From: Dehalococcoidia bacterium
GTDB taxonomy: Bacteria; Chloroflexota; Dehalococcoidia; Lucifugimonadales; UBA3495
NCBI GenBank assembly: GCA_963664625.1
Contig: OY761541.1
Span: 3,019,606-3,083,605 of the forward strand
Direction: 5' to 3'
Length of the DNA stretch: 64,000 nt
This document shows positions 2,299 through 64,000 of the stretch, piece by piece. The position numbers and the translations under genes are program-made. Each line of letters opens with the position of its first letter. Within the stretch, counting starts at the first letter, position 1. The notes below the pieces were generated by a model. The model was given only the letters and a program-made list of their open reading frames with translations. It was not told the origin of the DNA and ran no database searches.

Positions 2299-2383
2299 TG
2301 GTGGGGAAGGGGAGACTCGAACTCCCACGCCTTTCAGCACATGATCCTAAGTCATGCTCGTCTACCAGTTCCGACACTTCCCC
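2299..2383 (-). tRNA. tRNA-Leu (anticodon UAG)
   Basis: The reverse complement reads GGGGAAG-TG-TCGGAACTGGTAGACGAG-CATGA-CTTAGGA-TCATG-long variable arm-TGGGAGTTCGAGTCTCCC-CTTCCCC-ACCA. The cloverleaf has a 7-bp acceptor stem, a TAG anticodon in a 7-nt loop, a class II variable arm and an encoded CCA. Confidence 0.92.
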
Positions 2384-2481
2384 CAGCAGACTGTTCCCGA
2401 AAGTCTCCTTCCTCTTAGCGGCCTCTAAGTCAAAACGAAACCCTCTGACGCCAGAGTTATCCATTGACGTAGAGTCGCGGT

Positions 2482-2511
2482 ATTATATCTGACGGTATAT
2501 CTTCCTGTCCA
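2482..2511 (-). promoter_or_regulatory. Candidate sigma70-type promoter for tRNA-Leu
   Basis: On the minus strand: TGGACA, an 18-nt spacer, then TATAAT, about 95 nt upstream of the tRNA 5' end. This is a sequence match only. Confidence 0.3.
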
Positions 2512-2627
2512 GCCCAGTAAAAACGGTGGATTGTCAACATTCAATTTTTCCGTGCGTTGATTTCCGCCAACCTTACACTCCAACTTTCTCTCCCATGCTT
2601 CAGGGCCTGATGACCTCCAAGTAGTCA

Positions 2628-3056
2628 TCAGCGCGGGTCGTCGCTGGTGAGGAAATCCACCACCTCTTGTGTCATGGGCATCGATACTTGACCCTTTTCG
2701 TCTTTTACCCCGAACCGTTCCATGGCTTGCCGTAACCTTTCACCTTGTGCTGCCCGCCACTTCTCTCGGTCTTGCTCACGCAACCTTTTTATGATTCTGT
2801 CGGCTATCACTCGTATTACCTCCCATCCAGCTAATAAAGCAACAGTCAGCGGGACACTAATCTGGACCTTACTGACCGCCGCAAGCATGGCCTCAAACCA
2901 TGACCGGGGAATTTCTTTCTCCAGTTCATACCATGCTAACAGTGCGGTCAACGCCACTATCAAGATAAATCCCGCGACCAGATATTTGAATTCATTGTCC
3001 CTAATCATTGAACCCCAATCTCCGCCCGACGCGCTTGCGGATGCGCCGTGGGCCAT
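2628..3056 (-). CDS. Hypothetical two-TM membrane protein with a charged helical tail (third gene of the HNH operon)
   Basis: 142 aa. Hydrophobic segments YLVAGFILIVALTALLAWY and ISVPLTVALLAGWEVIRVI are followed by a Lys/Arg/Glu-rich helix. ATG is preceded by GGAGGAG and lies 6 nt after the upstream stop. Confidence 0.6.
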   Translation of the reverse strand: MAHGASASASGGDWGSMIRDNEFKYLVAGFILIVALTALLAWYELEKEIPRSWFEAMLAAVSKVQISVPLTVALLAGWEVIRVIADRIIKRLREQDREKWRAAQGERLRQAMERFGVKDEKGQVSMPMTQEVVDFLTSDDPR

Positions 3057-3062
3057 TATTGG

Positions 3063-3542
3063 TTACTCCTCCTTAGACGTGGGATCAATCACGGTTATGG
3101 ACCAACGAATTGGGTCGGGATTGCCTGCGTCAAGATAGCGCCTCATAACCGTTGACGGCTCCAACCATTCCACCCACATATCCATGGTCCTTGACAGTTC
3201 TGCCAAGGACAATTCAATCTGGCTCTGTGGATCGTCGTCCTTAAATCGCTCGTCGCTAATCGAAATGCTCCCGTCTTCGAATACTATGCAATGTCCATGG
3301 AGAAGCGCATTTCTGAAATCCCACATTTTCTTCAGTTGATCTTCTGGGATGGTATCTGCACTCCATTTAACCATGCCGCTAAATATGCGCCCCTCAGGGG
3401 TCCTCTTACAACTCTTTATTTTGTACATCAATTCTCGGCGGCCGGCTAACGACGCAATCACTCCCAAATGAAGATATGCTTGTTCCTCACTCTTGCTTAG
3501 ATGTAGCGTTCTGCTGCCGTCTGGGTTCCTTTGGACGTGCAT
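3063..3542 (-). CDS. Hypothetical protein with a HEPN-like Rx4H motif (FRNALLHGH)
   Basis: The track ORF 3063..3701 overlaps the HNH gene. I trimmed it to the ATG at 3542, which follows GGAAGGAGG, giving 159 aa. The motif R77-N-A-L-L-H82 (nt 3297-3314) matches the HEPN RNase signature R[NHD]xxxH. Local GC is clearly lower than in the flanks. Confidence 0.55.
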   Translation of the reverse strand: MHVQRNPDGSRTLHLSKSEEQAYLHLGVIASLAGRRELMYKIKSCKRTPEGRIFSGMVKWSADTIPEDQLKKMWDFRNALLHGHCIVFEDGSISISDERFKDDDPQSQIELSLAELSRTMDMWVEWLEPSTVMRRYLDAGNPDPIRWSITVIDPTSKEE

Positions 3543-3561
3543 GAAAATATGTCCTCCTTCC

Positions 3562-3840
3562 CTAAATCCCAATCTCCGCCAGCCTTGCCACCAGATACTC
3601 CTGGGGCCGGTTGCCCTTGATGCGGTTGCAGCTTGAGCGGAGTAGTTGCAGGTTTTCAAGGTGGTCAGTGCCGCCCCGGGATTGGGGGATGACGTGGTCA
3701 ACCTCGAACAGCTTGAAGGGGAAGTCTCCCTTGCAACTGTTGCATGGCCCCTCTTGCTCGCCGAAGAGGGTGTGTTTGTTCTGCCGGTAGCTGCGCACGC
3801 TCGTACAAAAAGTCATAAATTCAAGCTGCGACAATGCCAA
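3562..3840 (-). CDS. Small HNH endonuclease
   Basis: CNSC ... EVDHVIPQSRGGTDHLENLQLLRSSCNRIKG matches the classical HNH/His-Me finger (C-x2-C, DH, N, C-N-x2-K). The start is uncertain: TTG at 3840 or ATG at 3816. Confidence 0.75.
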   Translation of the reverse strand: MALSQLEFMTFCTSVRSYRQNKHTLFGEQEGPCNSCKGDFPFKLFEVDHVIPQSRGGTDHLENLQLLRSSCNRIKGNRPQEYLVARLAEIGI

Positions 3841-4059: not shown

Positions 4060-4428
4060 ATGACTACTGAACGTCGAAGAGGGACTGTGTCACTGCGTCA
4101 AATCAACGGCTCTGCCCGGTCTAAAAAGGTCAGGGCTGACTTGGGGGAAGAGTCTTCGTTTACGGCGTTCCCCGCGCCGGTCAAGGTCGGCGACGCTTCC
4201 TACTTCCTGGTCCGGGGCCGGGACGGCTACAAGCTGTTGTCAACAGTGTGCCCGCACCAGGGGGGCGAGATTATGGACGAAGGCGATGACCTGTTCGTTT
4301 GCGACGGCCACGGCTGGCAGTACGACAAAGCCGCGGGTCTTTGCGCCAGCCGCCCCGACTTCCGGATGAAGACGTTCCTGGTTACCGTGCAAAACGGCCG
4401 CCTCGTCGCGTTGGTGCCTGACGAGTAG
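4060..4428 (+). CDS. Small stand-alone Rieske [2Fe-2S] domain protein
   Basis: 122 aa with CPHQGG ... CDGHGWQY (CxH...CxxH Rieske ligands). ATG is preceded by GAGGGTG. Confidence 0.8.
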   Translation: MTTERRRGTVSLRQINGSARSKKVRADLGEESSFTAFPAPVKVGDASYFLVRGRDGYKLLSTVCPHQGGEIMDEGDDLFVCDGHGWQYDKAAGLCASRPDFRMKTFLVTVQNGRLVALVPDE

Positions 4429-4484
4429 CGGGACTGCCGCCGCTGGTTGGAGAGTGATGGTTGGGACCACAGGAGGCAAGCAAC

Positions 4485-4754
4485 ATGAAACAGATTACAA
4501 TCAGGGGCTTGGACGAGAAGTTGTCCGAAAGCATCCGCCAATTGGCGGAGAAAAAGGGGATTTCATTAAACAAGGCCGCGTTATACATGCGCCACGTCGG
4601 CGCCGGCCTCCCGCCTCCCCCCACTCCCAAGAAAGGGCCCATCGGCAATTCGCTGGACGATTTCATCGGTTCGTGGACCCAGGAACAATTGGATGAGATG
4701 CTTGCCCTCATTGAAGAGGAGTTCGAGAAAATCGATGAGGAACTCTGGAAATGA
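4485..4754 (+). CDS. Type II antitoxin (VapB-like, RHH/AbrB-type N-terminus)
   Basis: MKQITIRGLDEKLSESIRQLAEKKGISLNKAALYM is a typical antitoxin DNA-binding N-terminus. ATG follows AGGAGG. The stop overlaps the vapC start (ATGA). Confidence 0.7.
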   Translation: MKQITIRGLDEKLSESIRQLAEKKGISLNKAALYMRHVGAGLPPPPTPKKGPIGNSLDDFIGSWTQEQLDEMLALIEEEFEKIDEELWK

Positions 4755-5149
4755 GAGCACTCTTGGATTCTAACGCATATTCATATTTGGGTAGAGGTAG
4801 TCGTGCGGTCGAGGAGATTGTCAGGACGGCTGATGAAATCTTCCTTTCAGTCATAGTTATGGGAGAGTTGTTGTTTGGGTATCGGACGTGGTCACTGTTC
4901 GAGAGTAACGCCACGGAGTTAAGCACATTCCTCGCCCGAGACAACGTTAAGTTGGTGCCCGTCACACCCACCACAGCAGACTACTACGCCAGAATCTCGG
5001 CCTCTCTAAGAGCCAAAGGCAGGCCAATCCCTACCAACGATATATGGATTGCGGCCCACGCGATGGAAACCGGCGCCGACTTGGTATCGGCGGACAGCCA
5101 TTTCGAGTACGTCGACGGGATTGCGTGGGTAAGAATCCCTGCCAGGTGA
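4751..5149 (+). CDS. vapC: PIN-domain toxin VapC
   Basis: 132 aa. The N-terminus ALLDSNA carries the conserved Asp. The acidic residues and the C-terminal SADSHF motif fit a PIN ribonuclease. There is a 4-nt overlap with the upstream antitoxin. Confidence 0.85.
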   Translation: MRALLDSNAYSYLGRGSRAVEEIVRTADEIFLSVIVMGELLFGYRTWSLFESNATELSTFLARDNVKLVPVTPTTADYYARISASLRAKGRPIPTNDIWIAAHAMETGADLVSADSHFEYVDGIAWVRIPAR

Positions 5150-61999: not shown

Positions 62000-62434
62000 C
62001 TACACAGGCTCCGCAACGAACACCGGTATCTTCCGCGTCGTTCGGCCCTGGTACTCCTCATAGGGCTGGAACGCCGCTACCGACAACTCCCACAACCGGG
62101 CCCTTTCCGCATCGTCCGTTACCTCACGGACCCGCATCGTGTAAACCTCGGTCTCATCCTGAATCGTCACGTTGCCGTCGGCCCGCAGGTTATACACCCA
62201 CACCGGGTTCTTTGGCGCGCCGCCCCGTGAACCCACCAGCACGTAGTTGTTGCCGTCCTTTACCCGCATCAGCGGCGTCTTGCGGATTGCCCCCGTCTGG
62301 TTCCCCCGGTTTGTCACGACTATAACGGGCAGCCCCGTATCGCGCAGCGTCGTTCCCTCTGTGCCCCCGCTGCCCTCATAAAGCTCCACCTGCTCGCGCA
62401 CCCAATCCGAGGTCGACGGTATGTACTCGGCCAT
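62000..62434 (-). CDS. Deazaflavin (F420)-dependent nitroreductase-family oxidoreductase (Ddn/DUF385-like)
   Basis: VIVVTNRGNQTGAIRKTPLM...GGAPKNPVWVYNLRADGNVTIQ matches the Ddn-family split-barrel pattern. Confidence 0.8.
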   Translation of the reverse strand: MAEYIPSTSDWVREQVELYEGSGGTEGTTLRDTGLPVIVVTNRGNQTGAIRKTPLMRVKDGNNYVLVGSRGGAPKNPVWVYNLRADGNVTIQDETEVYTMRVREVTDDAERARLWELSVAAFQPYEEYQGRTTRKIPVFVAEPV

Positions 62435-62663
62435 AACTTGCTCCTGTATTTTGATCGTCGGTTAACTGTTGCCTCATAATATCTTGAATCGCCGCTTTTC
62501 TCCACCGATGTTATCTTATCCCCAAGGGAATCTCACGGTCCAATGGCTGCGGTACCTACCCAGCCATAGCCAAGGATTTGCATTTGACGCGGATTCGGCG
62601 GGGGGCTACACTCGAAATGACTCATCTGCGGCGTCTATGAATCATAAACAACAACGACAAGCT

Positions 62664-62945
62664 ATGGAAATATCGATCAGCGAACAGCAATTTCATCACA
62701 TCAGGAAAAAGATTGATGCAGGCCAATACCCTTCAACTGAGGCTGTGATCGCCAAGGCTTTGGATCTGCTGGACCAATATGACGAAACGATGTCCGAGGA
62801 ATTGGATGAGGTCGACGCCAAGGTCCGAGAAGGTGTAAACGCCTTGCGGGGCGGAGATTACACCGACTATACCGACGAAACGCTGGATGAGTTGTTCGAA
62901 GATGTAAAGCGGCGCGGTCGAGCCAGGCGGTCAGAATCTCGCTGA
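62664..62945 (+). CDS. parD: ParD-family antitoxin (ribbon-helix-helix)
   Basis: MEISISEQQFHHIRKKIDAGQYPSTEAVIAKALDLL. It ends 3 nt before parE. The start could instead be at 62637. Confidence 0.7.
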   Translation: MEISISEQQFHHIRKKIDAGQYPSTEAVIAKALDLLDQYDETMSEELDEVDAKVREGVNALRGGDYTDYTDETLDELFEDVKRRGRARRSESR

Positions 62946-62948
62946 CGC

Positions 62949-63248
62949 ATGGCATCATACCGGCTTTCCCATCCTGCACGACGAGACCTTGACGATATTT
63001 GGGACTTCTACGAGCGCCAGTCCGGAGAAACGGTCGCCGATCAACAGCTCACCAGGCTTCAAGAAAGGTTCCAATTATTGGCCAATCAACCGTATGCAGG
63101 CGTCCCTCGTCCGGAGTACGAAAGTCATCTTCGCAGCCACGTCGTACCGCGTTCGCGGTATGTCATCTTCTACTTCCCGCGGGAATACGGCATCGAAATT
63201 GCCCGAGTGATACATGGAAGCCGGGACATTATCAGCCAGTTCTCGTGA
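62949..63248 (+). CDS. parE: ParE/RelE-family toxin
   Basis: YRLSHPARRDLDDIWDFY ... YVIFYFPREYGIEIARVIHGSRD, the typical ParE pattern. 99 aa. Confidence 0.8.
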   Translation: MASYRLSHPARRDLDDIWDFYERQSGETVADQQLTRLQERFQLLANQPYAGVPRPEYESHLRSHVVPRSRYVIFYFPREYGIEIARVIHGSRDIISQFS

Positions 63249-63406
63249 ATCGTGAAAACCGGACAAACTCCCGGCATAAGTGAGCAATTATCAACAGCTA
63301 CTGACCAGCGGTGGCTTTCCTAGAGACACCGCTCCATGAAATCTCACCCACACCCGCATGACAGCATCATGGGGACTGTCCCGGCCCCCTGTGCTACACT
63401 TCAGCC

Positions 63407-64000
63407 ATGTCAATCCCCTACTTCCATCCAATAATCCAGGAATGGTTCCAAGGACGGTTCGAAGGGCCCACCGAAGCCCAAAGCGCCGGATGGCCTGCAA
63501 TTGCCCAAGGGCGGCACACCCTCATATCCGCCCCTACCGGCTCCGGCAAGACCCTTGCCGCCTTCTTGACCTGCATCGACCAGTTGGTGCGGCAGGGCAT
63601 CAGCGGTGAATTGCCGGAGACCACCCAGGTGGTCTACGTTTCGCCCCTCAAGGCATTGTCTAACGACATTCAGAAAAACCTGGCCGAGCCCCTGGAGCAG
63701 ATAACGGCCTTGGCCGACGAACGGGGAACGCCCCTTCCCCAAATCCGCACCGCGGTGCGGACGGGCGACACCAAGCAGTCGGAACGCGCCCGCATGGCCA
63801 AGCAGCCTCCCCACATTCTCATCACCACACCCGAGTCTCTGTACATCCTGCTCACCTCCGAAAGCGGTAGGCAGGGACTGAAGGATGTACATACTGTCAT
63901 ACTCGACGAAATCCACGCCGTCGCCGACGACAAGCGCGGCTCCCACCTGTCGCTGTCGGTGGAACGGTTGTGCGCCCTGTCCAATAGCCCCGTCGTCCGC
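63407..64000 (+). CDS. lhr: Lhr-type DEAD/DEAH-box ATP-dependent helicase (5' part, truncated by the window end)
   Basis: [35 protein letters not shown] (motif I), [13 protein letters not shown] (motif II). The frame is open to the last base. Confidence 0.85.

Follow-up and report, generated by a model that had tools for sequence, protein, structure and literature searches.

A low-GC three-gene block of a Dehalococcoidia genome as a possible decayed restriction-modification-like island with a candidate HEPN-like gene

The DNA analysed here (64,000 nucleotides of a Dehalococcoidia bacterium, contig OY761541.1, positions 3,019,606 to 3,083,605; hereafter the window) contains, near its beginning, a block of three closely spaced genes on the minus strand. 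They encode a protein with an HNH nuclease domain, a 159-amino-acid (aa) protein carrying an Rx4H motif, and a 142-aa protein with two transmembrane (TM) segments. The initial annotation, made from the sequence alone, had described the block as a candidate defence or abortive-infection module. Related loci are given below as L numbers, individual proteins as P numbers and metagenome runs as X numbers. The block is built from the following features:

3562-3840, minus strand: open reading frame (ORF) with the HNH domain, 92 aa from the TTG at 3840 or 84 aa from the ATG at 3816
3063-3542, minus strand: gene of the 159-aa protein, GC content 0.49, Shine-Dalgarno site GGAAGGAGG
3297-3314, minus strand: codons R77-N-A-L-L-H82, the Rx4H motif
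2628-3056, minus strand: two-TM gene, 142 aa from the ATG at 3056, Shine-Dalgarno site AAGGAGGAG

The three ORFs, the gaps of 19 nt (HNH ORF to 159-aa gene) and 6 nt (159-aa gene to 142-aa gene), the ribosome-binding sites of the second and third genes, the position of the Rx4H motif and the two TM segments with their charged tail were all found as the initial annotation had described them. Upstream of the HNH ORF, inspection revealed no visible Shine-Dalgarno site. The atypical composition was confirmed as well, since the 1.2-kb bin at 2401-3600 has a GC content of 0.496, the minimum among the 53 bins of the window, against about 0.60. The remaining bins range from 0.537 to 0.637, and the second-lowest (0.537) is found far away at 62401-63600. 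The genes of the trio are real and foreign-looking, with ratios of nonsynonymous to synonymous substitution rates (dN/dS) of 0.16-0.6.

The HNH ORF matched Pfam HNH (E = 7.6e-13) and has the residues D48-H49, N63 and N72, and its second CxxC reads RSSC. The replaced residue, Cys68, is the first cysteine of this zinc-binding pair; its column is at least 90% Cys in the relatives and Arg in the window. The Arg68 allele is backed by an exact metagenome contig, and other, more abundant HNH copies of the same community read TGC. A stretch conserved before the domain in relatives, RTDIxAPIxY, is missing from the ORF. Among 113 close homologue clusters, mostly of 100-160 aa, the longer proteins start at a C-terminal N6/N4 methyltransferase motif (VLDPFCGCATA...GIDIS). 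Several homologues have methylase N-termini deleted in different ways, and there are many independent internal-deletion forms and many fragments of 51-80 aa. Full-length fusions of ~420-480 aa are known from metagenomic relatives of the locus and from one IMG/VR contig. In L011, for example, a 417-aa protein combines N6_N4_Mtase (1.1e-39) with a C-terminal HNH (1.5e-14), and stop-to-stop ORFs of 467-556 aa at L091, L093/L094, L099, L103 and L104 end in an HNH domain 53-75% identical to that of the window; over L091-L104 as a whole, the stop-to-stop ORFs with this HNH type at their end measure 360-556 aa.

When the full-length fusions L011, L094 and L111 were used as tblastn queries, the alignment was restricted to 3580-3789, corresponding to their last ~70 residues, and no methylase remnant was found elsewhere in the 64-kb window. 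N6_N4_Mtase and HNH are therefore not joined in one polypeptide here, and the HNH tail alone survives. Because the homology covers only the C-terminus of the fusions, no methylase remnant is present and Cys68 is Arg, the HNH ORF is the truncated 3ʹ relic of an N6/N4-methyltransferase-HNH fusion gene. Its nuclease is probably dead, because the conserved N-terminal stretch, the zinc-binding Cys and the ribosome-binding site are lost. What the initial annotation labelled an HNH endonuclease is thus such a remnant. The dN/dS of the domain was 0.16-0.19 in comparison with L006 and L003, which means that it was under selection through most of its history.

In the related loci, such islands are founded by an N6/N4 DNA methyltransferase gene that encodes a C-terminal HNH nuclease in the same polypeptide, and low-GC cargo, often membrane proteins, accumulates straight after the stop codon of the fusion gene. 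Other truncated HNH genes (L006 and L102) likewise have low-GC cargo rich in TM proteins downstream. A literature search returned other HNH architectures and no description of a methyltransferase-HNH fusion with a cargo-collecting 3ʹ flank. Directly 3ʹ of many full-length methyltransferase-HNH genes we observed an unannotated basic protein of ~50 aa with the pattern ...VARA(I/L)xQGPPKKxWRF (2465-2617 in L098, 5280-5450 in L103, 2430-2582 in L104 and within 6048-6497 in L011). In L003 and L006 (6.5-8.7 kb in each), one chromosomal slot between an Amidohydro_2/UDG/LigT cluster and transketolase holds differing HNH-plus-cargo sets, namely HNH1, an 87-aa gene, HNH2 and a TM gene in L003, and HNH followed by genes of 86, 159, 75 and 296 aa in L006. 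This slot is a variable hotspot in two related genomes.

For the 159-aa protein, a word-indexed search returned only two relatives, with 86% (P0002) and 40% identity, and no Pfam, PADLOC, PHROG or NCBIfam match was obtained. A profile search of 1.84 billion representatives gave 19 matches to the family, of which no more than 3 counted as close homologues. In the resulting 20-member alignment, which takes in proteins with no more than 24-35% identity to that of the window, R77 is found in every sequence, H82 in at least 90% and N78 in most; L26, G27, G34, F76, L80, H82, V87, D90 and G91 are nearly invariant. The Rx4H motif, in the form FRNxLxHG, is thus the most conserved feature of the family, and several members add a C-terminal zinc ribbon. 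All nine family genes that were measured have a GC content 4 to 15 points under that of their locus. In L010, a Dehalococcoidia metagenome-assembled genome, the family gene forms a trough of ~600 bp with 52-55% GC in a region of 70% GC, with housekeeping genes on either side. DNA homology between family loci extends from ~15 nt 5ʹ of the ATG to the stop codon, and the dN/dS of the 159-aa gene relative to L010 was 0.32. Searches with sub-alignments yielded one genome locus (L010) and no family member in IMG/VR. A transposon or integron origin was rejected, as no inverted repeats, attC-like element or target duplication were found around the family gene in L001 and L007-L010. On these comparisons, the 159-aa gene is a mobile, low-GC cargo gene of a rare, unannotated family.

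The initial annotation had taken the motif of the 159-aa protein as the signature of HEPN RNases. A survey of HEPN proteins (PMC3710099) places the Rx4-6H motif at the close of helix 3, mostly with N, D or H next to the R, and describes frequent inserts between helices 2 and 3 and, in Csx1, a hairpin that immediately follows the motif. The 159-aa family shows such a motif, with N78 in the polar position next to R77 in most of the 20 members. The family consensus matched HEPN_LA2681 with E = 9.3e-4 and 19 bits (cut-off 27), two single members matched the same model with E = 0.005 and 0.09, one member matched HepT-like with E = 0.19, and one gave a local match to PD-T4-5 with E = 0.004. All recurring weak database affinities of the family point to HEPN families. 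The sole return of a PDB sequence-profile search, a Nop58 match (E = 0.088), was judged spurious.

An AlphaFold model of the protein was built from the 20-sequence alignment, with a predicted local distance difference test (pLDDT) score of 81.2 and a predicted template modelling score of 0.71; an AF2 model from only 3 sequences (pLDDT 43) was discarded. The accepted model has an N-terminal hairpin, a long helix (17-43), two short helices (49-53 and 55-64) and a helix at 67-82, followed by a hairpin (84-96), a strand (108-111) and helices at 113-124 and 129-138. R77-H82 is modelled at the C-terminal end of helix 67-82, directly before the beta-hairpin. In the HEPN superfamily, the motif closes helix 3 of a four-helix up-down bundle. 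The model is compatible with the survey in the position of the motif, the residue after R, the inserts and the Csx1-type hairpin. The best Foldseek match in the PDB had E = 1.3 and a template modelling score <0.25, with no HEPN chain returned. We therefore call the protein HEPN-like by motif, motif position and context, short of established membership: the conserved Rx4H and the uniformly HEPN-directed affinities uphold this part of the initial annotation, and a threshold profile match and a recognisable HEPN fold do not accompany them.

The two-TM protein has hydrophobic segments from residues 22 and 56, followed by the charged C-terminal tail (Kyte-Doolittle scan). Only two relatives of its gene were found, P0005 in L003 and P0006 in L004, both of which start at MIRDNEF right behind the HNH stop, equivalent to Met17 of the window protein (ATG at 3008, 126 aa). 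The dN/dS of the gene was 0.33-0.55, and the TM gene of L004 is frameshifted. The 142-aa protein had no PHROG, NCBIfam or PADLOC match; a holin match at E = 0.06 in the family-library scans of the 159-aa and 142-aa proteins was disregarded.

In L003 and L004, the HNH stop abuts the TM start (GGGGTGTAG-ATGATCCGG) and there is no middle gene. In the window, a 13-mer occurs in exactly two copies (0.25 expected in 64 kb), located on either side of the 159-aa gene:

3568-3580, minus strand: repeat copy 1, GGCGGAGATTGGG, in the 3ʹ end of the HNH coding sequence
3012-3026 (13-mer at 3014-3026), minus strand: repeat copy 2, GGCGGAGATTGGGGT, just upstream of the Met17 codon of the two-TM gene

Copy 2, extended to GGCGGAGATTGGGGT, equals the HNH ends of L003 and L004 exactly, and copy 1 reads GGGAT instead. 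Copy 2 is a relic of a resident HNH 3ʹ end, which is now read in another frame inside the 16-residue N-terminal extension of the membrane ORF. The synonymous substitution rate (dS) between the window and L003 was 0.53 for HNH and 0.17 for the adjacent TM gene. A precedent for a tandem arrangement is found in L003, with [HNH1-87aa][HNH2-TM]. Because HNH and TM genes abut in L003 and L004, the 13-mer flanks the 159-aa gene and the dS values are unequal, we infer that the locus is a mosaic in which this scar was left by recombination.

The locus was present in three metagenome runs (X1-X3) of one study, with a depth of 5-15. In all three, depth rose 3- to 10-fold over the HNH 3ʹ end (3512-3680), showing that the community contains many HNH copies. 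One contig each in X1 and X2 joined position 3561 to 2835, that is, the HNH end to the middle of the membrane gene, which may reflect another arrangement or an assembly artefact. A strain variant in X3 keeps the 159-aa and TM genes intact, and its HNH part is covered just by a divergent contig. A strain variant in this run has a 12-nt in-frame insertion at 2751 in the charged tail of the two-TM gene, and the same extra residues (AEER) are found in L004 (330-341). In a sponge metatranscriptome, a 234-nt contig matched 2663-2879 of the TM gene with five mismatches, which is weak evidence of transcription at best. Dehalococcoidia or Chloroflexi are the labels of relatives, and the host is probably a Chloroflexota bacterium.

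Ten genomic contexts of the 159-aa family were compared (the window, L001, L007-L010, L109, L111, L112 and L113). Eight of them, all except the window and L111, have neither HNH nor TM homologues. The order of HNH, family member and membrane protein recurs once, at the distant L111. This 2.4-Mb contig has a methyltransferase-HNH gene that is nearly full-length and shows one apparent frameshift. The family member P0013 lies 12 nt downstream of it (36% identity with the window protein in a BLAST alignment of 109 residues), and the next gene encodes a 179-aa protein with an N-terminal TM helix. The GC contents of the two cargo genes are 0.51 and 0.45, against 0.58 in their surroundings. Upon all-against-all BLAST of the cargo proteins, the membrane proteins of the window and L111 proved unrelated, and no common downstream partner emerged. 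The trio, conceived in the initial annotation as a module, is thus not a conserved unit: L003 and L004 do without the middle gene, and only L111 repeats the order, with a TM protein that is not homologous.

Elsewhere, the family member lies near a type IIG-like methylase, a PLD-SNF2 helicase and VapC (L001/L002), in an island with Ymh and pEK499_p136 HEPN genes, recombinases and insertion sequence (IS) elements (L109/L110), or near transposases and small ORFs (L007 and L113). The region 438-8677 of L001 encodes the PLD-SNF2 helicase (1078 aa) and an Eco57I/TaqI_C-type methylase (1229 aa), then VapC (TIGR00028, 1.2e-30) and P0003, beyond which lies a 64-aa fragment resembling the N-terminus of a PLD protein. 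The region 3444-6513 of L109, also seen in L110, contains a dCMP deaminase, Ymh (PF09509), pEK499_p136 (PF18736), serine recombinases, IS elements and a helix-turn-helix/ImmA-like pair, and the family member P0018 lies directly 3ʹ of the pEK499_p136 gene. The 159-aa family is linked to restriction-modification and mobile-element contexts in L001, L109 and L111, which supports the initial annotation in part. For a gene with one or a few copies per genome, two HNH adjacencies in ten contexts would be much more than expected at random, although the architecture is not fixed.

The neighbours named in the initial annotation were also confirmed:

2299-2383, minus strand: tRNA-Leu(tag), flanking the block on the same strand as the trio
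4060-4428: Rieske gene, on the other flank of the block
4461-5149: vapBC-type ribbon-helix-helix (RHH)/PIN pair, adjoining the block beyond the Rieske gene

As the block lies at the 5ʹ side of tRNA-Leu and has neither an integrase ORF nor a tRNA-derived repeat, a classical tRNA-targeted island, which would lie on the 3ʹ side and carry an integrase and a direct repeat of the tRNA 3ʹ end, was ruled out. The vapBC-type pair consists of a 97-aa FitA-like RHH antitoxin (sub-threshold, 24 bits) and a 132-aa PIN toxin (1.9e-16), whose genes overlap by 4 nt and form their own low-GC patch (0.48-0.55) beside the block. A 67-aa ORF at 2425-2628 overlaps the stop codon of the two-TM gene (TGATG) and is probably not a gene. 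Within it lies TGGACA-18-TATAAT (2482-2511, 11/12), a promoter-like site upstream of tRNA-Leu and the sole strong one in the region. A simple sigma-70 scan found no promoter for the trio, the single good site belonging to tRNA-Leu.

Taking these results together, we favour, with moderate confidence, the reading that the block is a decayed, horizontally acquired restriction-modification-like mobile island rather than a purpose-built three-gene system, and that it carries a candidate HEPN-like abortive-infection gene. A unit of an HNH 3ʹ end and the 159-aa gene would have recombined ahead of a resident pair of HNH and two-TM genes of the L003/L004 type, leaving a direct repeat of 15-23 nt from the end of the resident HNH gene, which would now supply the out-of-frame 16-residue extension of the membrane ORF. 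The methylase part would have been lost, leaving an HNH tail that is probably dead. The 159-aa protein would most likely be a divergent HEPN-like, metal-independent RNase using Arg77 and His82, and might serve as a "second-line" suicide or abortive-infection RNase of the type repeatedly found by comparative genomics beside restriction-modification genes. The two-TM protein would be independently acquired cargo, possibly a membrane effector or anchor. The data show the anatomy of the block, the spread of the family and the recombination scar; an RNase activity, a defence phenotype and an interplay of the two cargo proteins are inferences drawn from them.

Several results weigh against this reading. 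No HEPN profile reached its curated threshold for the 159-aa family (best 19 bits against 27), Foldseek searches of the pLDDT-81 model against PDB and BFVD returned nothing with E <0.1 and no HEPN, and the acidic Ex3[KR] motif of HEPN proteins is not evident in the family. An hhalign comparison of the family profile with the pEK499_p136 HEPN protein of L109 aligned just 21 residues around the motif, with a probability of 2%. An HNH neighbour is present in only two of the ten contexts, and the family members of L009, L010 and L112 lie amid ordinary genes (housekeeping genes in L009 and L010). PADLOC-DB 2.0, the defence-system check called for by the initial annotation, named no system: the 159-aa protein, the 142-aa protein and the family consensus had no match, and HNH gave generic Cas9, REase and PtuB HNH-domain matches. 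The sponge metatranscriptome contained no contig over the 159-aa gene or the HNH ORF. The low dN/dS of HNH (~0.16-0.19) suggests that this domain may retain some function, and the recombination scenario draws on one scar and on the dS of short genes.

The alternative closest to the initial annotation is a dedicated anti-phage or abortive-infection system in which HNH nuclease, HEPN RNase and membrane effector evolve together as one unit of three genes. The genes are indeed tightly packed on the same strand with low GC, the same order is found in L111 (~31-36% family identity), and a vapBC pair lies next door. The synteny evidence makes such a system decidedly unlikely: L003 and L004, which conserve the HNH-TM pair, have no middle gene, eight of the ten family members have no HNH, and the TM partners of the window and L111 are unrelated. 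Furthermore, its HNH component would be a truncated fragment with neither zinc ligand nor ribosome-binding site, PADLOC finds nothing, and dS differs between HNH and TM genes.

At the other extreme, the whole block could be inert debris of an old mobile island, with no current function in any of the three ORFs. Truncation, the Cys-to-Arg change and the missing ribosome-binding site of HNH would fit this view, as would the relic repeat, the extreme rarity of homologues, the frameshifted TM gene of L004 and the many HNH fragments of 51-80 aa. We nevertheless consider it unlikely, because both cargo ORFs are intact with strong Shine-Dalgarno sites, dN/dS is below 1 for all three genes and the X3 strain variant preserves the 159-aa and TM genes. 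Also in favour of function are the conservation of the Arg in all and of the His in nearly all family members, at identities of 24-35% to the window protein, and the TM-gene-like transcript contig in the metatranscriptome. Instead of being an RNase, the 159-aa protein might act on or with the HNH nuclease, for instance as its inhibitor, immunity protein, controller or specificity factor. Its gene follows the HNH stop by 12-19 nt in two independent loci (the window and L111), and the tandem of HNH fragment and variable gene in L003 and the window resembles orphan toxin-immunity arrays. Such a role is very unlikely, because most members (L001, L007-L010, L109, L112 and L113) have no HNH neighbour; in addition, the fusion protein has its own methylase for self-protection, and a conserved R/N/H triad placed where a helix ends has the character of a catalytic site more than of a binding interface.

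Going beyond the decayed-island reading, it is possible, and in our view doubtful, that the FRNxLxHG proteins represent HEPN RNases with a remodelled structure that have so far gone unrecognised as a family, and that they act as abortive-infection back-up to undescribed single-chain methyltransferase-HNH elements whose 3ʹ flank captures membrane-protein and RNase cargo. In this extended form, they would so far be only low-GC single-gene inserts in Chloroflexota-type, partly sponge-associated genomes.

The nearest comparison for the 159-aa family is with the HEPN families of restriction-modification neighbourhoods (Ymh PF09509, pEK499_p136 PF18736 and LA2681 PF18733, with the logic of PrrC/RloC; Anantharaman et al. 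2013, PMC3710099). Like them, the family is small, has Rx4H with a polar residue after R and a motif modelled at a helix end, and occurs beside methylase or nuclease genes in mobile islands, the L109 member adjoining Ymh and pEK499_p136 themselves. Unlike them, it stays below profile thresholds (19 vs 27 bits), finds no HEPN in Foldseek and has no Ex3[KR]; its model is alpha+beta with an N-terminal and a post-motif hairpin, and some members add a C-terminal zinc ribbon. Single-gene HEPN proteins of abortive infection (AbiD/AbiF/AbiU2/AbiV, PMC3710099) likewise occur as stand-alone genes of patchy distribution and atypical composition that spread horizontally and need no dedicated antitoxin to persist, whereas the 159-aa family has no sequence match to any Abi HEPN model.

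The methyltransferase-HNH genes resemble selfish restriction-modification units in that an N6_N4 methyltransferase is fused to a nuclease, small islands sit among housekeeping genes without an integrase, and decay and rearrangement are frequent. In type IIG/IIC enzymes the nuclease is usually an N-terminal PD-(D/E)xK domain. The fusion nuclease here is instead a predicted C-terminal HNH, and of the fusion the window retains the HNH tail alone. There is also a likeness to the orphan toxin-C-terminus/immunity arrays of contact-dependent inhibition (CDI) and Rhs loci: tandem units combine a truncated conserved fragment with a variable small downstream gene, and short homologous stretches could drive cassette exchange. 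In contrast to those arrays, it is the nuclease domain that is conserved here and the cargo that varies; secretion or delivery genes are absent, and nothing indicates that the downstream genes confer immunity.

That RNase and small membrane-protein genes travel with restriction-modification elements is already well known. For now, the locus mainly warns that genes packed as neatly as an "operon" can have been assembled by recombination around a dead gene fragment. Should the 159-aa family prove to be a functional HEPN-like RNase, it would be a new, very small addition to the restriction-modification-linked RNases, with a fold that current profile and fold searches fail to recognise. Methyltransferase-HNH genes with a cargo-collecting 3ʹ flank would be a handle for finding further defence cargo in the poorly studied genomes of Chloroflexota and sponge symbionts.

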